A stretch of DNA of 64,000 nt from Patescibacteria group bacterium (GTDB taxonomy: Bacteria > Patescibacteriota > Kazan-3B-28), in assembly GCA_041649135.1 (NCBI GenBank), contig JBAZNQ010000001.1:32559-96558 (forward strand), given 5' to 3'. The translations under genes were made by a program, and so were the position numbers. The notes under the pieces were generated by a model, which made no database searches, was not told the DNA's origin, and saw only the letters and a list, made by a program, of their open reading frames with translations. Of this stretch, positions 37,303 through 64,000 are shown in pieces (position 1 is the stretch's first letter; each line of letters begins with the position of its first letter).

Positions 37303-37364
37303 ATTTCCCACTACTTATCATTTTTCACTTTTAACTCTTCACTCTTAACTATTCACTATTCACT

Positions 37365-37772
37365 ATGTTAATCCCCAGAAAAGTAAAATATCGCAAGCAG
37401 CATCGAGGCAAAATGGGTGGCGTCGCCACTCGGGGGAGTGCTATTGCTTTTGGTAAATTCGGTCTCAAATCTCTGGAGGCGCATTGGATTACTGCCCGCC
37501 AGATCGAAGCCGCTCGTCGAGCTATTACCCACTTTATTAAACGTGAAGGCAAAGTCTGGATTCGGATCTTCCCGCATCAATCGGTTACCTCTACTCCCAA
37601 CGAAACCCGTATGGGTGGCGGTAAGGGGGCAGTCAGCCATTATGTTGCTACCATCAAACCAGGCACGATCTTATTTGAAATGGATGGAGTGCCGGAAGCA
37701 GTTGCCGAAAAGGCACTCAATCTGGCTGGCCACAAATTACCGATCAAAACTAAGTTTGTAACTAAGGTTTAA
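37365..37772 (+). CDS. rplP: 50S ribosomal protein L16
   Basis: [15 protein letters not shown]. Confidence 0.95.
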
Positions 37773-40261: not shown

Positions 40262-40387
40262 ATCGTAAAGTTAATCATTAATAGTGAATAGTTAAGGAAA
40301 ATAATTTAACCCCCCCCAATCTCTATTCTCTAATCTCTCTTCTCTCTTCTCTCTTCTCTACTCTCTAATCTCTACTCTCTAACTCCC

Positions 40388-47619: not shown

Positions 47620-48555
47620 ATGATTGAAGACATCAACATCCCAAGTATCAAGCTCGAAGAAAAAGCGATTAATCGCGCCGTCTTCGTAGTCGAGCCGTGC
47701 TTTCCGGGTTACGGCACAACTTTAGGTAATTCCCTTCGTCGAGTTTTGTTAAGCTCTTTGCCGGGTGCGGCTATCATTGCTGTCAAAATCGCTGGTGTTG
47801 ATCACGAATTTTCGCCGGTCATCGGTGTCAAAGAAGACGCTGTTGGTATTATCTTGAATCTCAAAAAGCTTCGGTTTATTATGCACGAAGCCGGTCCAGT
47901 CGCTTTGAAATACAAGGGTGGTAAGACTGGTGAAATTACTGGTGCTGATTTAGAAATTCCTAGTACGGTTACCTTGGTCAATCCCGAACAATACATTGCC
48001 ACAGTCTCCGAAAAAACCGCTCTGGAAATGGAAATTCAGGTCGCCAAAGGTCGCGGATATATGCCCAGTGAAGCCATGGATGAAAAGAATTTCTCCATCG
48101 GTACGATTGCTGTTGATGCCGCTTTCTCTCCAGTCGTCAAAGTCATGTTTAATGTCGAGCCAACTCGTGTTGGCGAAATGATCAACTATGACAAGCTGAC
48201 AATTAATGTTTTAACCGATGGGACGATTACTCCGGAAGAGGCCGTTCGCCAAAGTGCTCAAATTTTGGCTAAGCAATTAACTGTCTTCGGTGTTGATTTA
48301 GAGAATCTGCCGATCGGTGAAACACCAACCGAAGCCGAAGCCGTCGATGTAAAAGACTTCAGTATTGATGAGGTTAATCTATCAGTTCGGACCACTAACG
48401 CATTAGTTAACAATGGTATCAAAAAAGTTAGCGAAATTCTGGAAGTTGGTGCCGAAAAACTCGGGACGATGAAAGGTCTAGGTGCAAAAGCGTTGGACGA
48501 AATTACTGACAAATTAGCCGAGCTTGGTATTAAGTTTAATAATCCCGATTCTTAA
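47620..48555 (+). CDS. rpoA: DNA-directed RNA polymerase subunit alpha
   Basis: 311 aa. Confidence 0.97.
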   Translation: MIEDINIPSIKLEEKAINRAVFVVEPCFPGYGTTLGNSLRRVLLSSLPGAAIIAVKIAGVDHEFSPVIGVKEDAVGIILNLKKLRFIMHEAGPVALKYKGGKTGEITGADLEIPSTVTLVNPEQYIATVSEKTALEMEIQVAKGRGYMPSEAMDEKNFSIGTIAVDAAFSPVVKVMFNVEPTRVGEMINYDKLTINVLTDGTITPEEAVRQSAQILAKQLTVFGVDLENLPIGETPTEAEAVDVKDFSIDEVNLSVRTTNALVNNGIKKVSEILEVGAEKLGTMKGLGAKALDEITDKLAELGIKFNNPDS

Positions 48556-48658
48556 TTCCCCCTCATTCCTCTCTATTCTCTATTCTCCTCTCTACTCTCT
48601 AACCTCTTCTCTCTACTCTTAACTTTTCACTTTTAACTATTAACTATTAACTTTTCTT

Positions 48659-49012
48659 ATGCGTCATTTGGTCAAAGGCAAAAAGCTGGGGAGAGTCAAG
48701 CGACAACGCACCGCGTTGATTCGCAATCTCTTAACTTCGCTCATTTTACATGAGCGTATCGTTACTACCGAAGCCAAGGCCAAAGCTCTTCGCCCGAAGA
48801 TCGAACGGTTAGTTACTATCGCCAAAAAGGGTAACCTAATGGCCAAACAGCAGTTGATGAAACCTCTTTACAATAACCAGATCGTAGTTAAAAAAATGTT
48901 ACAGGTTATTGCTCCCCGTTATCAGGGACGCGTTGGTGGCTATGTCCGGATTGTTCGCAAAGGAACTCGGGTCGGTGACGCCGCGCCAACTTCCGTAATC
49001 GAATTTGTATAA
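48659..49012 (+). CDS. rplQ: 50S ribosomal protein L17
   Basis: 117 aa. Confidence 0.93.
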   Translation: MRHLVKGKKLGRVKRQRTALIRNLLTSLILHERIVTTEAKAKALRPKIERLVTIAKKGNLMAKQQLMKPLYNNQIVVKKMLQVIAPRYQGRVGGYVRIVRKGTRVGDAAPTSVIEFV

Positions 49013-50497: not shown

Positions 50498-51289
50498 ATG
50501 GACAACGATTTACAAAAACCATCACAGGACGATCGATCAGAGCTCGACAATGTTGTTTCAGCCGAGGAAACCGTCGAAACTCCAGAAGAAAGTTCAGCCG
50601 AAGCCGAAGTTGAGGCTGAAGCCGGTACTGGTGAATTAGCCGAAGTTGAAGAGTCAATCGAACAGGCTGCTTTGCCGGTTGAGGAGATTGAAGAAGAAAT
50701 TGAAGAAAAGACTGACGAAGAACCAACCGCCGAAGCTCTAACCGCCGCCTCTCTAGCTCAAAAATGGCCGGGACAGTGGTATGTCCTTCATACCTATTCT
50801 GGCTATGAAGATGCAGTATCGGAGAGTTTGAAACAAAGAATTTCCTCTCTAGACATGCAAGACAAGATCTTTGATGTTTTGGTTCCAAAGGAAAATCAGA
50901 TTGAGATCAAGAACGGCAAACGCAAGATCGTTGAAAAGAAGATGTTCCCCGGTTACGTCTTAGTAAATATGAATGTAACAGAAGACTCTTGGTATGTTGT
51001 CCGCAACACTCCTAACGTTACTGGTTTTATTGGTTCCGGTACTGTGCCAGTCCCAGTTGCCGAACACGAACTCAAGGGTATCTTCAAACGGATGGATGTC
51101 GAAGAACCAAAATATAAGATCGATGTTAATATCGGTGATCTCGTCCACATCAAAGACGGTCCATTCAAAAATTACGACGGTTCAGTTGCTGAAATTGACG
51201 AAGAGAAAGGTAAGATCAAAGTCTTGGTTTCCATCTTTGGCCGCGAAACCCCCGTCGAACTAGATTTCTTACAGATCAAAAAAGCATGA
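50498..51289 (+). CDS. nusG: Transcription termination/antitermination factor NusG with ~85-aa acidic N-terminal extension
   Basis: NGN and KOW domains (WYVLHTYSGYE; GDLVHIKDGPFKNYDGSVAEI). Confidence 0.9.
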   Translation: MDNDLQKPSQDDRSELDNVVSAEETVETPEESSAEAEVEAEAGTGELAEVEESIEQAALPVEEIEEEIEEKTDEEPTAEALTAASLAQKWPGQWYVLHTYSGYEDAVSESLKQRISSLDMQDKIFDVLVPKENQIEIKNGKRKIVEKKMFPGYVLVNMNVTEDSWYVVRNTPNVTGFIGSGTVPVPVAEHELKGIFKRMDVEEPKYKIDVNIGDLVHIKDGPFKNYDGSVAEIDEEKGKIKVLVSIFGRETPVELDFLQIKKA

Positions 51290-51331
51290 TAGTTCAATAG
51301 ACTAATAGACCAATAGACGAATTGATGGAGA

Positions 51332-51697
51332 ATGTTCAAGTTTGAAAAACTAAATGTGTGGCAGTCTGCTCGAATTTTCATTCAGACAATATATAAACTT
51401 AGTCAGCAATTCCCATCGAGTGAATTATACGGGTTAACATCACAAATTCGTCGTGCAGCCGTATCAGTAGCACTGAATATCGCCGAGGGTTGTAATTCAG
51501 GTTCTAACAAAGAGTTTAATCGGTTTCTCTATCTGTCTTCTCGTTCCCTTGACGAAGTTATTAGCTGCCTGTACCTTGCAATGGACCTAGAATACATTCA
51601 AAAGACAGATTTTGATGTCATCTATCAAGCTGCCGAAAATCTCGGCAAACAAATATCTGGTTTAAAAAGGTTCCTAGCCCAATCCGTCAGTCTATAA
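51332..51697 (+). CDS. Four-helix-bundle protein (TIGR02436; 23S rRNA intervening-sequence protein family)
   Basis: MFKFEKLNVWQSARIFIQTIYKLSQQFPSSELYGLTSQIRRAAVSVALNIAEG. Confidence 0.7.
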   Translation: MFKFEKLNVWQSARIFIQTIYKLSQQFPSSELYGLTSQIRRAAVSVALNIAEGCNSGSNKEFNRFLYLSSRSLDEVISCLYLAMDLEYIQKTDFDVIYQAAENLGKQISGLKRFLAQSVSL

Positions 51698-51729
51698 ATC
51701 TATCTATCTACTAATCTATTAATCTACTT

Positions 51730-51912
51730 ATGCCTGCTAAAGCCAAAATCACTAAAAAAGTCAAACGCCCCATCATCAAACTGATGTGTACTGAATGTAA
51801 ACAGGGTGTTTACTCTACTCGCAAGAATCCGACCAACACGCCGGATAGATTGGTCAGAAAGAAATTCTGCCGCATCTGCAAAAAAACCACCGAGCACAAA
51901 GAGACGAAATAG
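51730..51912 (+). CDS. rpmG: 50S ribosomal protein L33 (Cys4 zinc form)
   Basis: 60 aa; CTECKQ...CRICKK. Confidence 0.9.
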
Positions 51913-51944
51913 TATCTAGCATTCAGTATCTAGCATCTAGCTCC

Positions 51945-52160
51945 GCGTCATTCCTGCGGAGGCAGGAATCCATTTTCTTTTTGTCATCCCGAGCGTAGTC
52001 GAGGGATCTAGCGTAGTGCTATCAAAAATCATCTTAAAACCCCGCTCCCTCTTCTTGTCATCCCCGCGCAGGCGGGGATCCACCCCGTTTTGTCATCCTG
52101 AACTCGTTTCAGGATCTAAAAATCACCTATCAAAACCCCGCTCCAGTAGCGGGGTTTATG
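51945..52160. repeat. Cluster of MITE-like GTCATYC hairpin elements plus a terminator-like hairpin (aaaaccccgctccagtagcggggttta)
   Basis: Repeats visible by eye. Confidence 0.55.
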
Positions 52161-52182
52161 GTAAAATACACCTGTACTATAT

Positions 52183-52256
52183 AGGGGCGTCGTTCAGTGG
52201 TAGGACGTGGGTCTCCAAAACCCAAGACGAGTGTCCGATTCACTCCGCCCCTGCCA
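52183..52256 (+). tRNA. tRNA-Trp (CCA). The T-loop reads UCCGAUU (C at position 55), which is non-canonical.
   Basis: Acceptor aggggcg/cgcccct; anticodon stem tgggt/accca, loop ctccaaa. Confidence 0.75.
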
Positions 52257-52299
52257 GCAAAATTATTCGCTTTCACAGTGGATTTTATTTTGATCCAAA

Positions 52300-52896
52300 G
52301 TGGAAGTTAGAACCGTAAGGCGATGTTATACTAAACTTGTGTATGATCAAGTTAAACAGTTTGTAGAAGAATCTTTTAGTGCTGGGGTTAATGAGAAGAG
52401 TATGAAGCACTTTGAGCAAACAGTTGCTTGGCTTAAACGTTTGAAACCCGATGCTGATGAGCCAATGTTAATTGCTGCCTATTCGCACGATATTGCCAGA
52501 GCATTGCGACAAGTAGATTCAAAAACCTTGTTTAAAAATAAAGAACTTAACGATCCCGAGGTGTTGAAAGAGCATCAAGAGCAGGGAGCCCAAATCATGG
52601 GAGAGTTTCTGAGGGATAATGATTACGACGAAGTGTCAGTCAAACGGGTAGAGAACATGATACGCCACCACGAAGAGGGTGGTGATGAGGAATCTAACCT
52701 TCTGATGGATGCTGACAGTCTGAGTTATTTGGAGGTTAATGCCAAAAAACATATTGGACTAATTGATGTTTGGGGAAAGGGAAAAGTTGAACGGAAAATT
52801 GATTGGATGTATAGCAGGATTTCTTCTGCTCGGGCTAAAGAATTTGCCCAGCCATATTACCAAGAAGTGAAGGACTTACTGAACAAGCATTTCTAA
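52300..52896 (+). CDS. HD-domain metal-dependent phosphohydrolase (cassette 1)
   Basis: H...HD motif (KHFEQT...LIAAYSHDIARAL). The stop TAA lies inside the att-like repeat core TTCTAAC. Confidence 0.6.
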   Translation: MEVRTVRRCYTKLVYDQVKQFVEESFSAGVNEKSMKHFEQTVAWLKRLKPDADEPMLIAAYSHDIARALRQVDSKTLFKNKELNDPEVLKEHQEQGAQIMGEFLRDNDYDEVSVKRVENMIRHHEEGGDEESNLLMDADSLSYLEVNAKKHIGLIDVWGKGKVERKIDWMYSRISSARAKEFAQPYYQEVKDLLNKHF

Positions 52897-52969
52897 CTTC
52901 CTCCACCACGGTCTGCCAGTTATTTTATTCGCTCCCAGAGCGGATTATTGTCGGTAGTATAATACAAAC

Positions 52970-53533
52970 ATGGAAAAGCTAACTTTTATTACTGGCAATC
53001 CAGCCAAGGCAAAATATCTCGGTGACTACTTTCATTTTCCAGTTGATCACCTCAAATTAGATTTGCCAGAGATTCAGTCTACGGATTTACAAACAATCGT
53101 TGAAGACAAGGTCAAACGAGCTTTTGCCATTACAAGTACGCCCGTAATAGTTGAGGATGTCTCTCTGATATTTCACGGGATGAAAGCACTCCCTGGTCCA
53201 CTCATTAAATGGTTTCTTGAAACTTTGGGGAATAACGGACTATGTAAATTGGTGGATGGTTTAAATAACCGCAAAGCAACAGCCAAAGTAATGTTCGCAA
53301 TTTGTGATGAGTCAGGTGTTCATACCTTTGCTGGTTCAATGGAAGGCTCTATCTCCGAGTTGCCAAGAGGGGAGATGGGTTTTGGCTGGGATCCGATTTT
53401 TATACCCGACGGTTATGACAAAACTTGGGCGGAAATGACCGATGACGAAAAACACGCTGTCTCCATGCGGAAACAAGCGTTGGAGCAAATGTCAGAGTTC
53501 TTGTCCAAACAAAACGTAATGGTTAATGGATAA
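52970..53533 (+). CDS. Non-canonical purine NTP pyrophosphatase (Ham1/RdgB/ITPase family) (cassette 2)
   Basis: MEKLTFITGNPAKAKYL...GFGWDPIF. Confidence 0.75.
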   Translation: MEKLTFITGNPAKAKYLGDYFHFPVDHLKLDLPEIQSTDLQTIVEDKVKRAFAITSTPVIVEDVSLIFHGMKALPGPLIKWFLETLGNNGLCKLVDGLNNRKATAKVMFAICDESGVHTFAGSMEGSISELPRGEMGFGWDPIFIPDGYDKTWAEMTDDEKHAVSMRKQALEQMSEFLSKQNVMVNG

Positions 53534-54020
53534 TCAGCATCCTCAAAAACAATTTATGGAAGCCGCTATAGCAGAGGCAACCGAAGCTCGCGATAACGGT
53601 GATTATGCCATCGGAGCGATTATTGTTCATGATGGTCAAGTTATTTCCAGAGCCACCAACCGATCTAAGGTCGACCAAGACGCAACCCAGCACGCCGAGA
53701 TAGTCGCAATTCGTCAGGCGTCGCAAATGCTCGGGTCTCGCTATTTGGAGGAGTGCATTTTGTACACTACCCACGAACCCTGCCCTATGTGTGCTGCCGC
53801 TGTTGTTTGGGCAAAAATGAGAGGTGTTGTATCGGGGGCTCGCATGGAAGACATGACGGACTATCGCATCAAGAATGGCAACGATGAATGGAAATGGCGG
53901 ACTATCAGCATTCCTGCCCGAGAGGTGTTAGCAAAAGGGGAACCAAAGGTTATGCTAATAGAGGAGTTTATGCGGGATGAGTGTAGGCAGCTGTTTCACG
54001 GTGCCGAATCAAATTCCTAA
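53526..54020 (+). CDS. CDA-fold zinc deaminase, TadA-like (tRNA adenosine or nucleoside deaminase) (cassette 2; overlaps the Ham1 gene by 8 nt)
   Basis: HAEIVAIRQA...THEPCPMCAAAVVWAKMRGVVSGA. Confidence 0.7.
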   Translation: MDNQHPQKQFMEAAIAEATEARDNGDYAIGAIIVHDGQVISRATNRSKVDQDATQHAEIVAIRQASQMLGSRYLEECILYTTHEPCPMCAAAVVWAKMRGVVSGARMEDMTDYRIKNGNDEWKWRTISIPAREVLAKGEPKVMLIEEFMRDECRQLFHGAESNS

Positions 54021-54074
54021 CTTCCTCCGCCACGGTTTCTGCCAACCGCTTATACTCTCTACAGATAAAAGATT

Positions 54075-54626
54075 ATGAAAAACGACATTAGACCCATATA
54101 TAGTGAGTTGCGAGGATATCTTAGTGTCGCTCCACTCGCAGATGGATACTTGTTTGGCAGCGAAGCTAATAGATTTAGTCATCAACTAAACGTCACCATC
54201 GATGAATTAAACGAGGCTACCAAGAGCAACTATGACAAATTTAAAGTGGTACTTGAACATGACAGCGGTAGCCCAGCCCTTATGATTAGTGATTACCGCA
54301 ATAGGTTGAGCGGTCTGATCTATAAGATCCAAGGAGAATATTTTGCAGATGAACAGCAGTCGGGAAGTGGGCCCAGTACTATTATTAATGCCAACCAAAG
54401 TCAGGCTCAAAGCCAACAGCAAAGCCTTATAGTCGACTTGGTTTTCTTTGTTGCTGAGAAAAAAGCGGAGTATCAGGATGGAACACCTGAGAAGACATTC
54501 CTAGATAAGTTTGGGGATGCGCTCAAAACGGCCAAGGGAGTTCAGGATATAATTCAGCTTATCTTCACTATAGCGAGTCAGGTTGGCCTTCAGTTGGAAC
54601 AGCTTAAGAACTTATTTGGGGGATAA
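54075..54626 (+). CDS. Hypothetical protein (cassette 3)
   Basis: 183-aa ORF with no recognisable motif. Confidence 0.4.
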   Translation: MKNDIRPIYSELRGYLSVAPLADGYLFGSEANRFSHQLNVTIDELNEATKSNYDKFKVVLEHDSGSPALMISDYRNRLSGLIYKIQGEYFADEQQSGSGPSTIINANQSQAQSQQQSLIVDLVFFVAEKKAEYQDGTPEKTFLDKFGDALKTAKGVQDIIQLIFTIASQVGLQLEQLKNLFGG

Positions 54627-54632
54627 TACGTA

Positions 54633-54974
54633 ATGGAAATTACCTACGAAGATTTTGAAAAAGTAGATATCCGACTTGGTCGGGTTATTGATGCTCAAGA
54701 TTATCCAGAAGCCAAAAAGCCTGCTTTCAAGTTGAAGATAGACTTTGGCCCAGAGATTGGCATCAAGAGTTCCAGCGTTCAAGCTGTCGGTGCTCACACT
54801 AAAGAAGAACTTAATGGCATGCTGGTTTGTTGTGTAGTTAATTTCCCACCTAAGCGAATTGGCGATTTCACATCCGAAGTACTGACTCTTGGTTTTAAGA
54901 ACGCTGACGGTATCGGCTGGGTACTGATTACTCCAGCCAAGCAGTCGGTTAATATCGGAGATAAACTTCAATAA
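54633..54974 (+). CDS. tRNA-binding domain protein (CsaA/Trbp111/EMAP-like OB fold) (cassette 3)
   Basis: DIRLGRVIDAQDYPEAKKPAFKLKIDFGPEIG... Confidence 0.65.
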   Translation: MEITYEDFEKVDIRLGRVIDAQDYPEAKKPAFKLKIDFGPEIGIKSSSVQAVGAHTKEELNGMLVCCVVNFPPKRIGDFTSEVLTLGFKNADGIGWVLITPAKQSVNIGDKLQ

Positions 54975-54975
54975 T

Positions 54976-55710
54976 ATGAATAAAATTGCATTAGTAACGG
55001 GCTCGTCTAAAGGTATTGGTATGGCAATTGCCATAGAACTATCATCCAGGGGATTTGATGTAATCATCAATAATAGTCACGAAAATGCTGAAGGCCAAGC
55101 CGTCGTTGATGAAATTAACCAACACGGTGGCAGAGCTGTCTATATGCCAGCCGATGTCTCTAATATTAATGATGTTATTAAACTCAAAACCGAAATCGAA
55201 GAACAGTTTGGACACCTAGACGTTCTTATCAATAATGCTGGAATCGTCAGAAAGGAATATCCAGGCCAAGCTAACTGGGAGGATTGGGATAGGGTGTTTG
55301 CTGTAAATGTGAGAGGTATGGCTCAATGTATCTATGAACTATCTCCAGTCATGCCCGAGGGTTCAGCGATAGTGAACATTGTATCTGTGTGGGGGCTTGA
55401 GCTCCCTGCATATGACGCCAACGCTTACGCTGCTTCTAAGGCAGCCGTAGTTAGTCTCACCAAGACCCTCGCTCTCCAGTTGGCTCCTAAGATTAGAGTC
55501 AATGCAGTAGCTCCTAGCGTCGTGGCAATTGAACAACCCCACGAAACTAATCCAGATACCGTTAAATGGGTGCAGGACAATATGCCCCTTGGACGCAAAG
55601 CCACACCTCAAGAGATTGCTAAATTAGTGGCTTTTTTGGTGTCAGATGATGCTAGCTTTATTATCGGTGATTGTATAAAAATTGACGGTGGATTAACTTT
55701 GAAGATCTAG
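54976..55710 (+). CDS. Short-chain dehydrogenase/reductase (FabG-like SDR) (cassette 3)
   Basis: TGSSKGIG Rossmann motif, NNAG, catalytic YAASK. Confidence 0.8.
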   Translation: MNKIALVTGSSKGIGMAIAIELSSRGFDVIINNSHENAEGQAVVDEINQHGGRAVYMPADVSNINDVIKLKTEIEEQFGHLDVLINNAGIVRKEYPGQANWEDWDRVFAVNVRGMAQCIYELSPVMPEGSAIVNIVSVWGLELPAYDANAYAASKAAVVSLTKTLALQLAPKIRVNAVAPSVVAIEQPHETNPDTVKWVQDNMPLGRKATPQEIAKLVAFLVSDDASFIIGDCIKIDGGLTLKI

Positions 55711-55875
55711 CTAACACACTGAGGCAATTGTTGCAGAATGACAGTTCTAACTTCCTCCACCACGGTCTGCCAGATAAATTATCCGCTATGACAGCGAATA
55801 TTTTTGTGTGGGCAACGCGTAGTTAGAACTTTGCCCAAGAAAAAAGCTCATTATTTACAGTCGCGAGCGAACGAC

Positions 55876-56841
55876 TTACCACCGCTTATAGAGAGCCCCC
55901 GTCTTTTGCAACAGCCAGAATGCTAACATTCCAGTCGCAAGAAAGAACGCTACTCCACCGAAGGTGGTGTTGAGCAATGGATGGGGATGAAACCACCATG
56001 TCATTACTGCGAGCAACAACCAGACATCGAACATGTGCTTTGATGTGCGGTGTTCATAGTCCATGTTCGAGTTCCAGAATCGAGCAGCTCCATGCACTAC
56101 GCCTCTAGTCATGCCCCATCCAAAAAACAAGAACAGTGGTAACAACATGTATGTCTCGTGCCATCTAGCCGAAAGCCACATGCCTATCACTGTTGGCCAC
56201 GGCATCAAGCAGGCAATCCAACATACGGCTCGAAACGCCTGAGGCTCGCCAACCAGTAGTGGCAGAGTACGCTTATTACCGTTTCTATCGGCTTCCATGT
56301 CTTCGATGTCCTTTAGCGTTTCGCGTATGACCAATGCCATTACAACGCTCAGGAATACACCTAACACTAGGGGCTTCGAAGAGCCTGCGACAGGGAACAG
56401 CATGAGTACTGGGCTGGAGGCTGTCACGGCTACCAGAACATTGTTGACTGGATACCAAGGTCGGATCCAGTTGTACAACCATATCCCTACACCGATTTGC
56501 GACAGCAAGAGGGATGACTGCCAAATGGCTAAACCTTGATTGTCTGAACGATGTAGAAACAACCAGCTGACAGCAATCACCACCAGAACACACCACTGTA
56601 TGACGGCAAGTTGGTATAGTTTGGCATGTTCGAGGTCGGTCATTTCTCGGCTTTTACCCCGATCCTCATTGCGGTCAAATAAATCGTTCCAGAGCATAGT
56701 CGCTCCACAAATCCATGCCTGAATAATGGCCAAGACCACAATTCCGACACCAAACTTGTAAAGCTGGACAGACATTCCGACCAACAGCCCTGCCGCTAGT
56801 AAGCTGACAGGCACTCTGTATCGTAAAAGTACATTCCGCAT
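55876..56841 (-). CDS. UbiA-family prenyltransferase, membrane (cassette 4, reverse orientation)
   Basis: NDLFDRNED (NDxxDxxxD), multiple TM segments. A strong SD aaggaggtg lies upstream on the minus strand. Confidence 0.65.
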   Translation of the reverse strand: MRNVLLRYRVPVSLLAAGLLVGMSVQLYKFGVGIVVLAIIQAWICGATMLWNDLFDRNEDRGKSREMTDLEHAKLYQLAVIQWCVLVVIAVSWLFLHRSDNQGLAIWQSSLLLSQIGVGIWLYNWIRPWYPVNNVLVAVTASSPVLMLFPVAGSSKPLVLGVFLSVVMALVIRETLKDIEDMEADRNGNKRTLPLLVGEPQAFRAVCWIACLMPWPTVIGMWLSARWHETYMLLPLFLFFGWGMTRGVVHGAARFWNSNMDYEHRTSKHMFDVWLLLAVMTWWFHPHPLLNTTFGGVAFFLATGMLAFWLLQKTGALYKRW

Positions 56842-56922
56842 TATTCACCTCCTTTACTGTATTTGCGGATGTTTCATTATATGGGCCGACGAGTAGATTA
56901 GTCCACAGGGATCGGTCAAGGG

Positions 56923-56951
56923 TTGACGCAACCCAGTTATCGTCCAATAAT
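56923..56951 (+). promoter_or_regulatory. Candidate sigma70 promoter TTGACG-17 nt-AATAAT for the 56985 gene
   Basis: Spacing and hexamers visible; SD aaaggagg before the ATG. Confidence 0.35.
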
Positions 56952-56984
56952 ACAGCCATTCAGTGACAACCAAAGGAGGTCAAA

Positions 56985-57377
56985 ATGTCGCTGTCACGCA
57001 CCTTGGCGGTCTTAGTGTATATTGCTCATCACCTCTGGGTCGGGGCAGCCATGCTGGCGTCCCTCACTTGGTTGGTGGATCACTTCAACTTGGTCTGGAT
57101 TAGTCCCCAGATTGTCAGCTTTGCGACTCGTTGGATGGCAAGTAGCATGGTGGTAATGATCATTGGTCCAGTGTTGTGTTGGGATGGGACATCTCACTAT
57201 CACTGTGCCCCACTATATTTACGCAGAGCCATTCAGGTCGCGTCTGGTGACAAAGTTGGGGGACTGTTTACCCCTCTTTTCAGCCATATACTTCCGTGGT
57301 CGGATGTCCACATAGCCTTAGCACTTAACCTATTCTTGTTAGGGGTGTGGCTCAGACTATTGTTGATAGAGCACTAA
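56985..57377 (+). CDS. Small membrane protein, hypothetical (cassette 4); followed by a terminator at 57398-57430
   Basis: 130 aa; 4 hydrophobic segments. Confidence 0.45.
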   Translation: MSLSRTLAVLVYIAHHLWVGAAMLASLTWLVDHFNLVWISPQIVSFATRWMASSMVVMIIGPVLCWDGTSHYHCAPLYLRRAIQVASGDKVGGLFTPLFSHILPWSDVHIALALNLFLLGVWLRLLLIEH

Positions 57378-57640
57378 GATGCAATTGTATTCGTCGCTTA
57401 CGGCCCCCATCTGGGGGCCTATCATTTTAATTTAATGGTAAACTTACAGGTATAGGACTGGTGGATTGGGTTAAAGCCGTTCTAACTTCCTCTACCAAGG
57501 TCTGCCAATAAAATTAACCGCTTTCATAACGGATTTTATTTTCAGCCACAGTAGAAGTTAGAACTTGAAGGTGTTACAATATCCCCATCAAACTAGAGGG
57601 GGCTAGCGCTCCTTCAAACCTCAACAAAGGAGGGTGGGCT

Positions 57641-58756
57641 ATGTACCACCACATCGAAAACGAACACTGCCCTATGTCGCACGGGTTTTGTTACCGCGAT
57701 GGAGTGCTGTATGTCACAGTTTTGGAAGCCTATCTTCCAGAACTACTAGAACGGCTACCTCAAGCGGTGGCCAATCTAGTATGCCGTCATCAGGACAAGC
57801 AACGGCTGGGAGAGTTCGGTGGGCTAGACGACTTAAATGGCTATCTCACGGAACCCGTCGGTGGCTATTGCGGTTTTGGCAGATTTGGCGAATCTCTGGC
57901 ATTCTTTCCATCTCCAGAATCTGGCTGGATTGAATTTCGCTACACTATACCAGGTAGTTATGAACAGGCTGTTCCTGGAATGGCGTCGCTGAACTTTTTG
58001 CTGTTCGTGCTGGCCTGGCTCACCAAGCCAGACGGTATTGCCTCGCCTCGAGGCAATCAGCTCGTAATCCGCGAGGGTGGTTCGTATAGCGTCGCGAAAG
58101 AGGTAGGCGATTGGCTTTGGTCGCAACCCATCGTCAATCTTCCCATCGCCCAAGCCATCGCTGAAGTCTATGCGTCTCTACATAGCCAGCTAACTCCCGA
58201 AGAGATTCACCTTGGCCTAGTTAGACCATCTGCCACAGACGTATTGTCTAAGCCTGGCGGTGCAACTGCCAATATCTACGGGCGGTCCATTCATCTTAAC
58301 TACCCTGGCGGTGCTGCCACTGGGCTAGATGCCGAGATGGCTCGCGAGAATCGGGGCTACCGCGTAGTGCCTCACAATGTTGATGTGCCCGCCCAAGATC
58401 TCGGGCTGTTGGTGGGGATGGCGAAGCTTCACGAACTGGTTGAAGCCGGTATCGATTCACAATGGATGAAGTACTACAGCATGTTCGCCACTCAAACCTT
58501 CGTTGAGCCTAACCCCGAAGAAATACCCATCAATCATCCCACCGAGGCTGGTGTCTACGAAGTCCGAGGCGAAGAGTACCTCACGATTGAGGTGTACCAA
58601 CACCCCGTTCTCGGACTTAGCGTCTGGTGCGAGGATGCCGATCGCGGAGTAAATGCGGATACCGAAGACGATGTAGCTGGCCATATCCGAGCCGATATGG
58701 CGGGCATCAACTTCGTGCGACGGCTACGCCCCCTGCAGTCAGGAGGACAAAACTAG
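57641..58756 (+). CDS. Hypothetical 371-aa protein, GC-rich (cassette 5), paralogous to 58996-59862
   Basis: SD aaggaggg. The C-terminal block VPHNVDVPAQDLGLLVGMAKLHELVEAG is shared with the next cassette. A terminator follows. Confidence 0.55.
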   Translation: MYHHIENEHCPMSHGFCYRDGVLYVTVLEAYLPELLERLPQAVANLVCRHQDKQRLGEFGGLDDLNGYLTEPVGGYCGFGRFGESLAFFPSPESGWIEFRYTIPGSYEQAVPGMASLNFLLFVLAWLTKPDGIASPRGNQLVIREGGSYSVAKEVGDWLWSQPIVNLPIAQAIAEVYASLHSQLTPEEIHLGLVRPSATDVLSKPGGATANIYGRSIHLNYPGGAATGLDAEMARENRGYRVVPHNVDVPAQDLGLLVGMAKLHELVEAGIDSQWMKYYSMFATQTFVEPNPEEIPINHPTEAGVYEVRGEEYLTIEVYQHPVLGLSVWCEDADRGVNADTEDDVAGHIRADMAGINFVRRLRPLQSGGQN

Positions 58757-58995
58757 AACCTACGGTCAGAATGCGACTGACTACCATCGGATGGCGAACC
58801 TACGGGTTCGCCTCCTTTAATTTAATGTTAAACTTACAGATATAGGGCAGGTGGACTGGATAAGAATTCTTCTAACTTCCTCCACCAAGGTCTGCCAATA
58901 AAATTAACCGCTTTCATAACGGATTTTATTTTCAGCCACAGTAGAAGTTAGAACTTGAAGGTGTTACAATATCCCCATCAAACTAGAGGGGGCTA

Positions 58996-59862
58996 GTGCT
59001 CCTTCAAACTCTGGAGTCTAACCACATGACAGATGATAATCTGAGCCTTTTTCACATCAGTCGTCAAAATTGCCCAGCGAATTATCGTCTGGCAATCGTG
59101 GACCCTAGGGTCATCACCGTGCTAGTCCACCGTAGCGTTTGGGAGTCGTTCTGCGAAGACACCAATCGTCGACATAATCCATTGTCACCCATGATAGGCG
59201 GCAATAATATCTTGGGCGAGGAAGTACCATTTATCGCCCCAGGAAGTATCAACGCGCCGTTTGGATATCATGACGGCGTGACGAGGATAGCCTCCGAGGA
59301 TCCACAGTGGGAAACCCTTTGTATTAAGCTGCCAATCGAGAAGAGTGCGAGTGGCGGGAAGGGTAACCACATGTTGGCTTTGGCCAACACTAGAGCAGTA
59401 CTGGTGTCCTTGATGGGGTCTCATTCGACCGCCCAAGAACCCCAGCTGTTGGCCATCTGGCAGATGTCGCTGTGGAACCCAGATTGCAGCATCGGCTGCA
59501 GGATGTCTCAAGCAATTGTTGCCTGGCTTACGGCTTTGACTGTAGAGCAAAGGGCCCGAATTGAAGCTGAAGTCTCGTTAGCGATGCGGACTGCTTTCAC
59601 AGTGATTCGCGACGGTGTCGTTTCACCGATCAGCAAGTCTGCTAGTGGTAAGGTCGGTATGCATCTATCTCATGGGGACAGTATATATTTGTACTGCTAT
59701 GGGACTAATTCTGGCTCTTTGGGCGCAGAATCCATCTCCAAGGCGATGTGTGGCGATCTCTTGCCACACAATATGGATAGCCCATACCAAGCGCTAGTCA
59801 CTGTCGCGGGGTTAGCCAAGCTGTACGAGATTGCCCGTGTGGCACTCTACCCATCAGAGTAG
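58996..59862 (+). CDS. Hypothetical 288-aa protein, GC-rich (cassette 6), paralog of 57641-58756
   Basis: Shared block LPHNMDSPYQALVTVAGLAKLYEIARVA. Terminator at 59883-59915. Confidence 0.5.
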   Translation: MLLQTLESNHMTDDNLSLFHISRQNCPANYRLAIVDPRVITVLVHRSVWESFCEDTNRRHNPLSPMIGGNNILGEEVPFIAPGSINAPFGYHDGVTRIASEDPQWETLCIKLPIEKSASGGKGNHMLALANTRAVLVSLMGSHSTAQEPQLLAIWQMSLWNPDCSIGCRMSQAIVAWLTALTVEQRARIEAEVSLAMRTAFTVIRDGVVSPISKSASGKVGMHLSHGDSIYLYCYGTNSGSLGAESISKAMCGDLLPHNMDSPYQALVTVAGLAKLYEIARVALYPSE

Positions 59863-60094
59863 GCCAAAACTGATCTCGAATTGGGCGGACATTCCCTTGT
59901 CCGCCCGCTTTTAATTTAATGGTAAACTTACAGGTGTGGGACTGGTGGATTGAGTCACAACCTTCCTAACTTCCTCCACTCTAGCCGCGTCCCACGACCA
60001 GCGGGCAGGCCACAATCTGCCAACCGCTACAATGGCAAAGCGACCGTAGCGTTTCAAAAATCCAAGATAAAACATTAATTCTTAACTAATCATT

Positions 60095-60562
60095 ATGTCG
60101 GATATTACATTCAAGAAAGTAACGATTGAAGATGTTGATAAACTTTTAGAGGTTGAAAAAACTGCCGTAAGTTCAAAAACATATTTTTCAATTACAGACA
60201 GGGAAGAGGCAAAAAAAGAAATCGAGAATAATGAAGTATATTTTATTATTAAGCATAATAAAATCGTTGGGACTACAGAATATCAAATCAAAAATCCCAA
60301 CCATGCATATCTTGGAGGACTTGTCATTATCCCGAGTTTTCAGGGGCAAGGTATTGCGCGCAAAGCGGCAGAATTTAAGCTCGAAAAGCTAAAGAATATA
60401 AAACGAATCGATCTTACAGCGCACCCTCGGAATAATAAGATAATTGTGCTTTATCTGTCGCTCGGATTCCATATTGAATCATGGAAAGATAATTATTTTG
60501 GAGATGGTGAGCCAAGATTAATACTGGCATTAAACAACTCACATTCTGATGAATGCGGATAA
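60095..60562 (+). CDS. GNAT family N-acetyltransferase (cassette 7, AT-rich)
   Basis: GGLVIIPSFQGQGIARKA acetyl-CoA binding motif. Confidence 0.65.
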   Translation: MSDITFKKVTIEDVDKLLEVEKTAVSSKTYFSITDREEAKKEIENNEVYFIIKHNKIVGTTEYQIKNPNHAYLGGLVIIPSFQGQGIARKAAEFKLEKLKNIKRIDLTAHPRNNKIIVLYLSLGFHIESWKDNYFGDGEPRLILALNNSHSDECG

Positions 60563-60634
60563 AGTAAGTTAAAAACGAGCAAAAAGATCGGAATCGAGCT
60601 GTTCTGCCAAAAGAAAACTTAGGAATTACATAAA

Positions 60635-61246
60635 ATGCCGCATAATAAAGATATGCTGGCTATCCTTAGTATTGCGGTCGTAGCATTTATCGCGACAAAT
60701 CTCGACGACACTCTTCTGCTTATAGGTTTTTTCTCTCACAAATCATATAAACCCATCCAGGTCGTCATCGGCCAATATCTCGGCATCGGCTTGCTTGTGT
60801 TTGTAAGCGCAATAGGCGCAGCCATTTCACTCTCGATCGCTCCGGCATATGTCGGGTTGCTCGGTTTTTTGCCTATAGTGATTGGAGCTAAAGAATTTTG
60901 GCATACTTTTATTACCGGTGATGCACAGGCAGAGAATACAAAAATCGCTTCTTCTGGAAAAATTCTTTCAATTGCTGCTGTCACCATTGCCAACGGAGGG
61001 GACAATATCGGCATATATATTCCTTTGTTTGCCACCATGACTTCCGCTCAATTTATAGTCACAGTGGTAATGTTTGCCGTGATGACTGGGCTGTTATGTT
61101 TGGCAGGATATTGGCTGGTATACCACAAAAGATTCGGTCGCCACATACAATATTGGGGGCATCGGATGCTGCCGTTTGTGCTAATTGGGCTCGGAGTATA
61201 TATTCTGTGGCACAACGGGAGTACTTCTTTGATTAAAGGGTACTAG
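60635..61246 (+). CDS. CadD-family cadmium/metal resistance transporter-like membrane protein (cassette 7)
   Basis: MPHNKDMLAILSIAVVAFIATNLDDTLLLIGFF; 5-6 TM. The stop is immediately followed by a variant att-like repeat. Confidence 0.55.
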   Translation: MPHNKDMLAILSIAVVAFIATNLDDTLLLIGFFSHKSYKPIQVVIGQYLGIGLLVFVSAIGAAISLSIAPAYVGLLGFLPIVIGAKEFWHTFITGDAQAENTKIASSGKILSIAAVTIANGGDNIGIYIPLFATMTSAQFIVTVVMFAVMTGLLCLAGYWLVYHKRFGRHIQYWGHRMLPFVLIGLGVYILWHNGSTSLIKGY

Positions 61247-61365
61247 AGCCCTAACCTCCTCCACCCTAGCCACGTCCCGCGATCGGCGGGCAGACCACAG
61301 TCTATTAGTATTGGTTTTCGACTCTTACGGTACAATAGAAGCAGTTATACTCGTTTATTTTTCTT

Positions 61366-61803
61366 ATGTCAAAACTCTTCATAGTTTCATCTCTTGGCTT
61401 AATGGTATGTTGCGGATTGTGTTTAAGCGGCTGTCAAAAAACCAATTCCACCAATCAGTCTCAAAGTTCTACCCCCAAAATTTATACCGATCAATCAAAA
61501 TTCGCCTCTGCTTTTACTAAATGTGAAGTTAGTGAGTTACAAATTCCTTTTGGTAGTGATGCGACCTACTCTATTAAAATGTTAGGGATTACTGACGGTA
61601 AATGTGGTTATCAGGTACAGGTTCGTAATAATACTCAAGGTAAGGTAACTAGTGGTCCAGCGGACTTGACTTGTAACATGCCAACAACGTCACTTAGTCA
61701 AAACGCTCTCGGTCATCTCTTTGGGTATGATAAAGCCACCGGCATGGAAACCACAAAAGCCGAACAGGATCAACTAGAGGCAAAGTATTGTCAATCAAGT
61801 TAA
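61366..61803 (+). CDS. Lipoprotein, hypothetical
   Basis: Signal peptide with lipobox LSGC. Confidence 0.5.
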   Translation: MSKLFIVSSLGLMVCCGLCLSGCQKTNSTNQSQSSTPKIYTDQSKFASAFTKCEVSELQIPFGSDATYSIKMLGITDGKCGYQVQVRNNTQGKVTSGPADLTCNMPTTSLSQNALGHLFGYDKATGMETTKAEQDQLEAKYCQSS

Positions 61804-61837
61804 GACCTTCCGGTAGGCTCCATAATCAATTCGCCCC

Positions 61838-62161
61838 ATGCAACATTACTCTCAAGAATTCGCCAATAGGTGGTCTCAACTGACATTGCCCCAACAGCTG
61901 GGTAATGTTGGGAGTGAAGTTAGCCGGATGCTCAAATGGCGAGACAAAGACCCCATCATTGCCGAACGGGCTTTTGAACGAATGCTGGAACTTATTGATT
62001 TGACTCTTCAAAATCAGACCAACGGTCCTCGTTTGCGAGAAATTGCCCGTGCTCGGGAAGTTTTGGTTCAGACGTGGTTGGAACGATCCACTTCGGATAA
62101 TGCGGAATGGGCATCTTTGAATCGGTACTTTTTCTATTTCGCCTTACTCGGTAATGCTTAA
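61838..62161 (+). CDS. Hypothetical small alpha-helical protein
   Basis: 107-aa ORF. Confidence 0.35.
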   Translation: MQHYSQEFANRWSQLTLPQQLGNVGSEVSRMLKWRDKDPIIAERAFERMLELIDLTLQNQTNGPRLREIARAREVLVQTWLERSTSDNAEWASLNRYFFYFALLGNA

Positions 62162-62221
62162 CATTTTTGTCCAATCCATCTCCCAAAAGATCTCTTACTA
62201 TACAACTCTAAATCTACTCAC

Positions 62222-63043
62222 ATGAGAAGAACACCCGAAGCTGGTGGACCACCAGAACCTCCCTCAACACCAGAAACATCACAGGAAAAGGAACATTTTG
62301 AACCAACCATTCGGATTGATCTTGTTCGGCATGGGGAAGCAGAATATAGCGATGAACTAGAGCAGCAAGTCGAAGCACAGGGCTACCCCTATGATAAACT
62401 CTTCCCAGCGTCCAAAACTACAGCAGAGCTTCGAGGAACGCGGGCTGGCAAGGAGGGTCGTTTAACCAAAGAGGGGAGAGCACAACTGACCATGTCCATG
62501 GAACATCTAGCCAAAAAGATTGATCCAGCCAATGAAGTAATCATAGTGTTGTCTAGCCCACAATTAAGAGCGGAGGAATCGGCAGGGGTCGTCATTGATG
62601 CCCTAAAACAACAAGGCGTTGATATTCTGGGAGCTAGGGAACATCTAGACCTTATCGATATGCAAAGACCTTGGATTGGGATATTGCAATTTCTTAAACA
62701 GAGCCCGTCTGGTGAATCTCCATTCAAGTACTGGCTACAAATGTCAGAGGAAGAGCTTCAAGAGGCAGATATTGAAGGGATAAAAAGCATTGAAGATCGG
62801 ACAGGCCACTTTATAAAACTTATTCAAGCACTAGCTCGACTTAGACGAGTGGGGTGGGGCCTAGATAAAAAGACCCTTCGCGTTATTGCTGTTACTCATG
62901 ATATTAATCTTATAGCTATCGCTGGTTGCGTTCCGGGCCTTAGCAAAAAAGAACTTAATGATGTTAAGCATGCTGAAATTGTCGAACTAGGTATGGACGA
63001 TCGCGGTGACGCTCAATTAATAACTGATGATGAAACAGCCTAA
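62222..63043 (+). CDS. Histidine phosphatase superfamily (phosphoglycerate-mutase-like) protein
   Basis: RHG catalytic motif DLVRHGEAEY. Confidence 0.6.
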   Translation: MRRTPEAGGPPEPPSTPETSQEKEHFEPTIRIDLVRHGEAEYSDELEQQVEAQGYPYDKLFPASKTTAELRGTRAGKEGRLTKEGRAQLTMSMEHLAKKIDPANEVIIVLSSPQLRAEESAGVVIDALKQQGVDILGAREHLDLIDMQRPWIGILQFLKQSPSGESPFKYWLQMSEEELQEADIEGIKSIEDRTGHFIKLIQALARLRRVGWGLDKKTLRVIAVTHDINLIAIAGCVPGLSKKELNDVKHAEIVELGMDDRGDAQLITDDETA

Positions 63044-63083
63044 GTATGTTCTAATTTTTTCTGGTATCGATTCCAACGCTTTG

Positions 63084-64000
63084 ATGACTGATCTCATGAT
63101 CCACGGACCCTACGGCCGTTTCCCGGCCGTTTTTTTGGTAGACGAAGGGCTTTGGCAATTGTACTTACCATCCGAGTTTTTACATCAACTTTCCGAAGAG
63201 GGGTACATGAACGCCTTACAAAAAGATTTTGTGGTCGGCTTTAACAAAGATGCGCAAAAAATGATTCAGGAAATCAGGAATTTCTACCAGTCTTATGACA
63301 AAGCCAATTCATTATCCCGTGAGAATTTTATAGACTATTTTAATGCTATGACGGATTTGGTAGTGCGTTTTTTTGAGCTCTATACCATTACTGAATTTTT
63401 CTATTCTGGGAAAATTGATCAAGAAATCTACCAATGGGCGAAACAAACTCATCCTGCTCACATTTCGCTGACAGTCAATAAATTACTTAATGGCACATAC
63501 CAGGGCGATGTCTCGAGTGTGATCAAGCAATTGGCTAATTTTCTTCAGGAAATTGGTAGGATACGTTTCGAGCTAAGAGAGACCATCAATCAACTCTACA
63601 TTGGTGACGGCGTTTATCTCGCCACTATGCGGTCTTTCGCTCGTCTTACTAATCGTGACGACTTTTCCGAATTAACTATACAAGAAATTCGCGATGTGAT
63701 TTTTGGTAAGGATGTGCCAGACGGGAAACATCGTCGCAAACTACTCGCAGTCCAACAAGAGGGTGGCGAATGGCGGTTCATGTCGAATGATCGAGCTCAT
63801 CAAATATTGTCTAGTGTTCAAAGATCTATCGGATCTCTTGAGGAACTGCATGGGCACACAGCTAGCCCCGGCAAAGCGCAGGGCATTGCGAGAATCTATT
63901 CGCTTAGTCGCTCCCCTGATTTTGATAGATTCAACCAAGGAAATATTTTAGTAGCTAGTACTACCGGTCCAGAGTTTATGCCTGCCATCCAGCGAGCCGG
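63084..64000 (+). CDS. Partial (5' portion) protein with PEP-utilising-enzyme mobile (swivel) domain; continues beyond the window
   Basis: Open frame from ATG 63084 to the window end. C-terminal visible motif HGHTASPGKAQGIARIY...GNILVASTTGPEFMPAIQRA resembles PpsA/RPH swivel domains. Not in the ORF track because it has no stop within the window. Confidence 0.45.
   Translation, partial: MTDLMIHGPYGRFPAVFLVDEGLWQLYLPSEFLHQLSEEGYMNALQKDFVVGFNKDAQKMIQEIRNFYQSYDKANSLSRENFIDYFNAMTDLVVRFFELYTITEFFYSGKIDQEIYQWAKQTHPAHISLTVNKLLNGTYQGDVSSVIKQLANFLQEIGRIRFELRETINQLYIGDGVYLATMRSFARLTNRDDFSELTIQEIRDVIFGKDVPDGKHRRKLLAVQQEGGEWRFMSNDRAHQILSSVQRSIGSLEELHGHTASPGKAQGIARIYSLSRSPDFDRFNQGNILVASTTGPEFMPAIQRA

Follow-up and report, generated by a model that had tools for sequence, protein, structure and literature searches.

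Two members of an uncharacterised protein family on a cassette array beside a tRNA-Trp gene in a Kazan-lineage patescibacterium

Overview

Two neighbouring genes, here called A and B, lie in a 64,000-nucleotide stretch of the genome of a Patescibacteria group bacterium of the Kazan-3B-28 lineage (the window, meaning the whole stretch that was analysed), and their products are, as judged from profile alignment, full-length members of an uncharacterised protein family of about 270 amino acids. Each gene appears to be carried as a separate expression unit, and the units belong to an array of short cassettes bounded by repeats. Taken as a whole, the reading that A and B are functional, anciently diverged family members on self-contained cassettes extending from the 3' end of tRNA-Trp is one to which we give an even chance.

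A protein family without a curated counterpart

An earlier note, made from the sequence alone, had pointed to a C-terminal block common to A and B and to similarity upstream of it, and both are borne out. BLASTP aligns the two proteins with 31 identities over 102 positions (30%, E 7e-8), a profile built independently of A, B and P0002, the closest homologue of B, covers residues 2-274 of A (99 bits) and 6-274 of B (131 bits), and the MAFFT alignment is colinear over all of B. A HMMER profile of A and B retrieved 76 clusters at E ≤ 1e-3 from 1.84 billion cluster representatives, five of them at E ≤ 1e-10; a word-indexed search of 5.8 billion proteins returned for A and B only their own entries and P0002, a JGI protein. 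Nearly all family matches are 250-295 amino acids long, with the shared block at their C-terminus, and the named occurrences are in genomes of Patescibacteria or the candidate phyla radiation (CPR), the Kazan lineage included. No further family copy was found among the other open reading frames (ORFs) of the window or in about 120 unrelated loci.

The alignment is marked by the motifs (D/N)IPAWYEL, WGFG, PQLL, L.CPGNACGLDP and GY.L.PHN.DSP.QQLTLLAGLAKL, the last of them also given, alongside WGFG and PQLL, as GY.L.PHN.D.P.Q..L...G.AKL. Columns G80, Q140, Y243, H248, N249, D251 and Q255 (B numbering) are invariant or nearly so and are kept in both A and B. A near-invariant polar cluster, G-Y-x-L-x-P-H-N-x-D-x-P-x-Q, stands at the start of the C-terminal helix, and an invariant glutamine lies in the PQLL strand.

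Scans of Pfam-A and NCBIfam placed neither A nor B in a curated family above cut-off (Pfam gave no family even at E ≤ 0.1), and no known catalytic motif was found, as the earlier note had said; nor did these scans reveal homology to a housekeeping family, the outcome that the note had set against its own view. The library scans (Pfam, NCBIfam, PADLOC and phrog) took in 67 family members. At E ≤ 0.01 Pfam and NCBIfam gave only weak matches, chiefly to DnaJ-type zinc fingers (three members in Pfam, with a CxxCxGxG zinc-finger insert, and up to five in NCBIfam), and the remaining matches in these two are scattered, with one or two members each. A profile search of PDB sequences reached a best E of 0.2. 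The isoelectric points are 4.9 for A and 6.1 for B, with a family median of 5.6, no signal peptide or membrane or other hydrophobic segment is seen on reading the sequences of A and B, and the family, at about 270 amino acids, is probably one of acidic alpha+beta proteins that are soluble.

Predicted structure and domain fusion

AlphaFold2, run with a 67-sequence alignment, gave B a mean pLDDT (predicted local distance difference test) of 86.1 and a pTM (predicted template modelling score) of 0.90. The model of B is a two-layer alpha+beta arrangement of the order bb-a-(a)-bbb-a / bb-aa-bbbb-a, in which long helices, among them the long last one at the C-terminus that bears the conserved block, pack against antiparallel sheets. 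For A the pLDDT is 82.7, and residues 1-283 follow the same order of elements as B. The earlier note had proposed AlphaFold with Foldseek as a check; this produced confident models and no match to a known fold, since Foldseek reached a best E of 0.14 (TM about 0.2) against PDB and of 0.025 (TM 0.13) against BFVD. The confidently predicted fold therefore appears to lack a solved analogue and to be new relative to these two collections. An internal duplication of the fold was considered and rejected at the sequence level, the N-terminal and C-terminal halves giving an hhalign probability of 5%.

A has three parts: the family core (residues 1-283, 57641-58489), a low-confidence linker (residues 282-291) and a beta domain (residues about 300-363, 58538-58729). 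Because the extra domain is 44% identical (E 6e-16) to P0058, a stand-alone protein of 80 amino acids, and is modelled as a separate domain, A is a domain fusion, in which the family core is joined to a small beta domain known also by itself. The same domain matches part of P0073 (145 amino acids, with a cysteine-rich N-terminal segment); no Pfam match was found for the extra domain, P0058 or P0073.

Two self-contained expression units

The elements of the two units are as follows.
57572..57580, + strand: extended -10 promoter-like box TGTTACAAT of A, putative, equally spaced at B and homologues
57593..57615, + strand: leader element of A, CTAG-AGGGGG-CTAG, overlapping a hairpin GAGGGGGC/UAGC/GCUCCUUC in the RNAfold minimum free energy (MFE) structure
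57627..57634, + strand: Shine-Dalgarno (SD) sequence AAGGAGGG of A, 6 nt before the ATG
57641..58756, + strand: ORF A, 371 amino acids, backed by the ORF list, the family profile and AlphaFold
58793..58812, + strand: intrinsic terminator of A, a terminator-like hairpin
58962..58970, + strand: extended -10-like box TGTTACAAT of B, putative, from sequence
58983..59005, + strand: leader element of B (RNAfold), with a spurious GTG at 58996 in its loop
59026..59862, + strand: ORF B, 278 amino acids, a full-length family member, with SD GGAG at 59013-59016
59882..59907, + strand: intrinsic terminator of B, a terminator-like hairpin

As the earlier note had it, the two ORFs are on the same strand in neighbouring repeat-bounded units, and each has an intrinsic terminator of its own; the preceding unit is closed by a terminator-like hairpin at 57402-57419. 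The strong SD that the note gave to each gene is present at A, and at B it is GGAG, 9 nt 5' of the ATG. A consensus promoter scan did not call the box of A at 57572..57580, which has no -35 element. Each gene would thus form a complete expression unit (extended -10 box, 5'-terminal hairpin leader, SD, ORF and intrinsic terminator), and each such unit would be one cassette of the array that starts at the tRNA-Trp 3' end.

The length of A, 371 amino acids, stands; the 288 amino acids that the note gave for B do not. The start of B is most likely the ATG at 59026, because the GTG at 58996, from which the mechanical ORF list begins, lies within the loop of the conserved leader hairpin (A has GCG there), because P0002, 84% identical to B, begins at the equivalent ATG, and because the JGI/ENA gene calls on the source contig are 371 and 278 amino acids. 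The NCBI annotation (locus tags WC553_00550 and WC553_00555; proteins MFA5009707.1 and MFA5009708.1) gives 360 amino acids for A and 223 for B, and both of its starts appear to be placed too far downstream, the JGI/ENA calls being the ones that fit the SDs and the alignment of homologues.

Divergence, selection and movement of A and B

Between B and P0002, the synonymous divergence (dS) is 0.26 and the nonsynonymous divergence (dN) 0.08, and their ratio of 0.32 indicates purifying selection. With this ratio, the family profile and the AlphaFold confidence, the possibility that the ORFs are spurious is ruled out, and A and B are, on these grounds, real genes under purifying selection. The best relative of A is P0006 (31% identity over 281 amino acids) and that of B, after P0002, is P0004 (30% over 280 amino acids), each from another genome, and B is outside the top seven matches of A. 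For this reason A and B are evidently not the product of a recent tandem duplication; they would be ancient paralogues or independent acquisitions. The words paralogous and duplicated, used of them in the earlier note, hold in the broad sense of the former and fail for a recent duplication.

The mobility that the note had proposed receives some support from the metagenome of JGI sample 3300037067. Contig L001 from this sample, which carries P0002, matches the window at 89.6% nucleotide identity from 58893 to 59905, and its B-type unit sits behind genes quite different from those of the window. The homology begins at 58893, at the CTGCCA core (58892-58897) of the junction upstream of B, and stops at the terminator of B, where L001 runs into Illumina adapter. 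A further contig from there, L134, matches positions 58212-59353 of the window at 100% identity, so that one community holds this genome together with a variant of the B unit. As to the adapter, the end of the public JGI contig Ga0378408_0112392 (L001:3386-3440) consists of it (AGATCGGAAGAGCACACGTCTGAACTCCAGTCAC) and is artefactual.

The foreign composition claimed for the genes is upheld in part. Their GC content is elevated relative to the 45.0% of the window, and the level of about 57% was an overstatement, the values being 53.9% for ORF A, 51.7% for ORF B and 51.8% over 57641-59862.

The 5' leader

Between the TGTTACAAT box and the SD, both A and B carry the leader ACTAGAGGGGGCTAG(C/T)GCTCCTTCAAAC. 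An equivalent of 20-28 nt is found 5' of A, B, P0002, P0004, P0005, P0006 and P0009, and the copies start 10-15 nt after a -10-like hexamer in genomes that range from 39 to 53% GC. The variants are ACTAGAGGGGGCTAGCGCTCCTTCCAAA in P0004 and also, with its G-rich part lengthened, in P0005, CCTGAGGGGGCAGGTGCTCCTTT in P0006 and CTTGGAGGGGGCAAGCTGTCCCTTC in P0009; the copies outside the window lie at L001:2472-2494, L125:~4285-4307, L129:~1313-1338, L124:~989-1011 and L132:~4953-4976. When contig L125 is compared with the window by blastn, a 28-nt island at the leader is all that aligns (96%), the proteins being about 30% identical. A loose regular expression run over 1.06 Mb of fetched loci found all known leaders, two stray sites and three loci that had been fetched by that pattern, and a scan of metagenome contigs for the leader (GAGGGGGCTAGNGCTCCTT) gave three chance matches in unrelated contexts, the known leader-bearing JGI contig being outside the set searched. 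An Rfam cmscan of 51000-64000 at E ≤ 1 returned the tRNA alone, and one of L001 two matches at chance level. The leader is, as far as nucleotide comparison goes, an island of conservation linked to the family.

RNAfold places an 8-10-bp hairpin, GAGGGGGC/loop/GCUCCUUC, in the MFE structure of five of six leaders. On direct reading, the four-nucleotide segments that flank the G-run stay complementary (CUAG/CUAG, CCUG/CAGG, CUUG/CAAG), and this second helix, which excludes the first, shows compensatory changes in two lineages. MAFFT puts the longer-loop variants of L129 and L132 out of register, so the compensatory changes come from direct reading only. The leader would switch between two mutually exclusive states, one a 4-bp helix that closes an AGGGGG loop and the other an 8-bp helix that pairs the SD-like G-run with an anti-SD-like CUCCUU; if not paired with the G-run, CUCCUU could mask the true SD. 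The leader is thus a candidate riboregulator or mRNA stabiliser, and most plausibly, as a weaker inference, it sets the stability of the 5' end or mRNA, the accessibility of the SD or translation.

Some observations tell against such a role. The stems are backed by only three variant lineages, the z-scores of whole leaders are modest (-0.7 to -2.2, with +0.4 for L129), and the leader is present in only six of the 12 family loci, being absent 5' of P0007, P0011, P0014, P0018, P0078 and P0079. Since it is missing from these six, it is best described, on present alignments, as a trait of the subfamily nearest to A and B.

Known leader hairpins include 5'-terminal stabilising and SD-sequestering types, such as STAB-SD and the SD masking of RNA thermometers. 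Like them, the leader of A and B is a stable hairpin, at most a few nucleotides away from where the transcript is inferred to begin, with an SD-like purine run and an anti-SD-like CUCCUU near the true SD. Unlike them, it is conserved with one protein family across genomes of 39-53% GC, and it has a second, exclusive 4-bp helix with compensatory changes and no Rfam match.

The cassette array and its junctions

The earlier note had described an att-like repeat of about 200 bp at both genes. The repeat measures 194 nt, with 180 of the 194 positions identical (93%) between 57426-57619 and 58816-59009. Its 87-nt cores (57479-57564 and 58869-58954) do fold in the manner of attC sites; att-like does not describe those other junctions of the array that are half-sites. 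The array comprises the following elements.
52183..52256, + strand: tRNA-Trp(CCA) gene (ARAGORN; Rfam tRNA, 59.6 bits), whose 3' end CTGCCA (52251-52256) serves as the array's first junction
52251..52313, + strand: junction with a right half only, joined to the end of the tRNA (CTGCCA followed by a hairpin and GTGGAAGTTAGAAC; repeat family D7)
52890..52918, + strand: left-arm junction TTCTAACTTCCTCCACCACGGTCTGCCA, without R'/L' arm, from sequence
54014..54044, + strand: left-arm junction TCCTAACTTCCTCCGCCACGGTTTCTGCCA, without R'/L' arm, from sequence
55744..55829, + strand: complete attC-like imperfect palindrome, junction 3 (fold of the bottom strand as single-stranded DNA (ssDNA), z = -3.5)
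57425..57478, + strand: conserved 3' tail segment TTTTAATTTAATGGTAAACTTACAGG..., copy 1 of 3, between terminator and junction (repeat family D12)
57479..57564, + strand: attC-like 87-nt imperfect palindrome 5' of A, GTTCTAAC...CTGCCA (57502-57507)...GTTAGAAC (bottom-strand ssDNA fold of -18.2 kcal/mol, z = -5.85, with a 3-nt bulge)
58815..58868, + strand: conserved 3' tail segment, copy 2 (D12)
58869..58954, + strand: attC-like imperfect palindrome 5' of B, CTGCCA at 58892-58897 (ssDNA fold)
59909..59962, + strand: conserved 3' tail segment, copy 3 (D12)
59963..60022, + strand: junction 6, with left arm TCCTAACTTCCTCCAC, an inserted GC-rich hairpin and CTGCCA (60017-60022)
61248..61300, + strand: junction 7, with a degenerate left arm CCCTAACCTCCTCCACC and a GC-rich hairpin as in junction 6, the last junction recognised in the window

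Between 52890 and about 61300, junctions with (G)TTCTAACTTCCTCCACC..GGTCTGCCA recur at intervals of one to three genes. Three of them (55744-55829, 57479-57564 and 58869-58954) run on into ..hairpin..GT(G/A)GAAGTTAGAAC and form, as single strands, attC-like imperfect hairpins with a 3-nt bulge and z-scores of -3.5 to -5.9. Half of the eight junctions have a left arm only, and the first has a right half only, as has L001. In the 64 kb, a Pfam scan of the upstream ORFs of at least 230 amino acids and of all array ORFs found no recombinase or integrase.

Elsewhere, among the matches listed, genomes of Kazan, Doudnabacteria, UBA926 and Saccharibacteria carry the left arm directly behind a stop codon, and NNN-TGCCA and then a terminator-like hairpin come after it. 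In at least three of these CPR genomes the arm lies 1.1-1.6 kb downstream of tRNA-Trp, with different accessory genes in between each time. Among the same matches, the bases after the arm copy the last 6-7 nt of the upstream tRNA (CTGCCA for Trp, GGAGCCA for Asn and CACCCA for His). Loci with the arm CTAACTTCCTCCACCAC are 52183-61300 of the window and L044, L058, L080, L033, L083, L104 and L121:6219, and no recombinase was seen in them. The scan of genome contigs with the 17-nt left arm TYCTAACTTCCTCYRCC was loose and gave mostly single chance matches, from which a 26-nt motif filter left about six informative CPR loci among the matches listed. The left arm was also considered as the 3' half of a tRNA, a reading that stays no more than an idea: a T-arm and acceptor cannot be drawn, and the arm resembles the T-arm and acceptor sequence of tRNA-Trp only loosely.

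Junctions 6 and 7 share, at 59980-60016 and 61266-61300, a GC-rich hairpin CTAGCC(G/A)CGTCCC.CGA.C.GCGGGCAG between left arm and core, an insert that appears to define a second junction subtype.

How the array may have been built

From these junctions we infer that the array arose by serial site-specific insertion at a core copied from the 3' end of the tRNA (CTGCCA). The recombination that put the cassettes together would act there in trans, a route other than the classical exchange between attC and attI at the R' box, and some right arms here, being inverted repeats of the left arm, would give those junctions their attC-like form. The start of the L001 homology at the CTGCCA core of the junction upstream of B speaks for this model, and so do the other CPR genomes in which the bases behind the left arm copy the upstream tRNA (Trp, Asn or His). 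What tells against it is that it comes without an identified recombinase and that the three complete junctions are equally compatible with true attC sites.

Elements that target tRNA genes, such as genomic islands that tyrosine recombinases insert at tRNA 3' ends, offer one comparison. The array is like them in that direct repeats of a tRNA 3' end bound the inserted DNA, that units accrete in tandem beside the tRNA and that the repeat follows the identity of the tRNA (Trp, Asn, His). It is unlike them in that its units are only 0.7-1.7 kb long and lack an integrase of their own, the recombinase not having been found, and in that the 17-20-nt arm CTAACTTCCTCCACCAC is common to several CPR phyla.

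The other comparison is with integrons, and a doubtful, though sizeable, possibility is that A and B are cargo of a degraded chromosomal integron, a cluster of attC sites without any integron-integrase (CALIN), in which the 87-nt repeats would be true attC sites, IntI would be encoded elsewhere and the half-sites would be products of decay. By definition a CALIN has at least two clustered attC sites and no integrase (PMC9024848). The window has three attC-like sites within 3.2 kb and no integrase in 64 kb, and these three fit the attC architecture (R''/R' and L''/L' pairing, here with GTTCTAAC/GTTAGAAC as the R boxes; extrahelical bases on the bottom strand; a variable central part; a length of 57-141 nt, here 86-87 nt) with a 3-nt bulge on the strand expected for top-strand ORFs and the fold z-scores given above. 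Also as in integron cassettes, the units are short, hold one to three promoter-bearing genes that are all co-oriented but one, and have a cargo of heterogeneous composition that includes family-less proteins. Against a CALIN stand the junctions that wholly lack R'/L' (four of eight) or, as in the first and in L001, have only the right half, so that half of the array's junctions are half-sites; the breakpoints between units, and between window and L001, which fall at the CTGCCA core that copies the tRNA end and not at the G|TT of R'; the outermost R-box positions (T and A), which depart from RYYYAAC/GTTRRRY; and the other CPR genomes, where the arm leads into a copied 3' end of the neighbouring tRNA and not into an R' box. 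No intI was found beside the array in the window scan and no attI with Pc at an integrase-proximal end, the array starting instead at the tRNA-Trp 3' end (52251-52313). Because integrase and attI are absent and the three sites are only putative attC sites, the array is not classed as an integron. A full-text literature search found no description of integron arrays in CPR/Patescibacteria and nothing relevant on cassettes linked to tRNA-Trp in CPR.

It is very unlikely, in our estimate, that the repeat of about 194 nt is a palindromic element like a miniature inverted-repeat transposable element (MITE), recently inserted into two intergenic regions, with the cassettes incidental and the genes ordinary paralogues. 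The repeat is indeed far better conserved (93%) than the proteins (about 30%), its 87-nt core has terminal inverted repeats, and a related Kazan-like genome has, with no such repeats, another family member downstream of tRNA-Trp. Yet the third of the repeat that holds promoter and leader has its ancestry in the gene family and not in the repeat, junctions recur at intervals of one to three genes, starting at the tRNA, and include half-sites, which a MITE leaves unexplained, and the B unit with its right arm is found in a different context.

Possible functions

The preferred suggestion for the role of the proteins, a tentative one, is that they are cytoplasmic accessory enzymes or proteins that bind a small ligand. 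The functional site would be formed by the polar cluster Y-x4-H-N-x-D-x3-Q at the loop of the C-terminal helix and by the invariant Q of PQLL. The following weighs against it: the assignment derives only from the conserved polar patch and the acidic pI; the cysteine pair of CPGNAC, the motif seen most often in the family, is present in 22 of 64 members, absent from A and half-absent from B, and is not essential, given that A lacks it and only this minority has it; the 12 other loci show no conserved gene neighbour; and no known motif was found, nor a structural analogue, in a comparison that spans PDB and BFVD only.

That the protein is an RNA binder or has an effect on translation, and regulates itself by binding its own 5' hairpin, would explain why the leader travels with the gene, and the leader is indeed conserved as nucleotides 5' of proteins about 30% identical and almost nowhere else, some members also having the CxxCxGxG zinc-finger insert. 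We nevertheless think it unlikely, as the family is acidic, which is unusual for RNA binders, and half of the family loci examined have no leader.

The earlier note had favoured defence, toxin or surface functions, and nothing supports any of them for A and B. For a surface protein, the absence of signal peptide and membrane segment and the acidic pI values speak against. That the genes are held in a variable island for defence or conflict with phages or competitors is highly improbable. It would suit the variable, cassette-like region with its foreign-looking GC, the orphan-like character of A and B and a weak match to phrog_3931 (function unknown) in four of the 67 members (best E 2.8e-6). 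PADLOC-DB 2.0, on the other hand, gave no meaningful match (a single member of the 67, at E 0.008), a tblastn search of 50,697 phage records with P0013 turned up no relatives, none of 56 matches of a family-pattern scan of IMG/VR was confirmed, and BFVD held no fold match. The survey of homologue neighbourhoods that the note had recommended, run on 12 loci, found no defence-island setting: in the 12 other loci the family gene is single, amid housekeeping genes and without a recurrent neighbour, and no partner gene such as an antitoxin or sensor is kept beside it. The contexts include SHMT-X-FolD, Gmk-X-PrmC/RF1/L31, L27/S1-X and UDG/NUDIX-X, where X is the family gene, and, in a Kazan-like contig, ABC-FtsX-ZIP-X-cupin, 3.1 kb downstream of tRNA-Trp. 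The alternatives weighed here and in the preceding section (CALIN, RNA binding, defence, MITE) address different aspects and are not mutually exclusive.

Wider significance

The genomes of CPR/Patescibacteria are very small, with many genes that have no annotation, and no described family takes in the cassette-borne proteins. Since families without a known function are common in the CPR, the proteins alone are of moderate interest, although their confident fold, unmatched in PDB and BFVD, makes them a definite object for structural and biochemical study. The near-invariant, family-specific leader offers a way in for experiments and could be a regulatory RNA in a group with almost none known; leader and tRNA-anchored junctions raise the interest, and both rest on small samples. 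The context may outweigh the proteins, for capture at tRNA 3' ends through a conserved arm common to several CPR phyla would, if true, show how these reduced genomes gain accessory genes with no classical integron. A decayed integron would make the finding an ordinary one, since most integron cassettes encode unknown proteins.

A larger proposal, rather unlikely in our estimate, is that these are linked novelties of the CPR, in which a new fold and family with a two-state leader of SD mimic and anti-SD mimic meets an integron-like capture at tRNA 3' ends. Such a system would use the phylum-spanning 17-20-nt arm CTAACTTCCTCCACCAC, the attC-like folded sites present here and a recombinase acting in trans, and, if true, it would be a functional analogue of integrons in ultra-small genomes.

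Surroundings of the array

In the window, the order is rpoB/C, ribosomal-protein genes, rpoA, L13, S9 and the NusG region, then tRNA-Trp. The other cassettes (52300-57377 and 60095-61246) encode an HD/DUF4202 protein, Ham1 (ITPase) with a cytidine/tRNA-type deaminase, a tRNA-binding-domain protein with an SDR, an inverted UbiA prenyltransferase with a hydrophobic ORF of 130 amino acids, and GNAT with a CadD-like transporter; the GC content of their ORFs ranges from 35% to 54%.

Between the gene for a 23S-rRNA-intervening-sequence protein (51332-51697) and tRNA-Trp, positions 51900-52150 hold several short palindromic units TTGTCATCC...GGATC together with tandem repeats of a short unit (TATCTAGCATTCAGTATCTAGCATCTAGC). 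Repeats like these are found at the equivalent place in the Kazan-like groundwater contig L132, which has a near-identical tRNA-Trp. In the ribosomal-protein region, dense 7-nt tandem repeats (TTCACTA/TTCTCTA and AATCCGA types) stand directly 5' of many genes, for example at 26610-26670, 37310-37376, 40307-40395, 48555-48664 and 16294-16442. The tRNA cluster at 11734-14547 (Leu, Val, Phe, Gly, Cys, Leu, Leu) contains repeats of about 80-90 nt over the tRNA-Leu genes and their downstream flanks (families D15 and D19).

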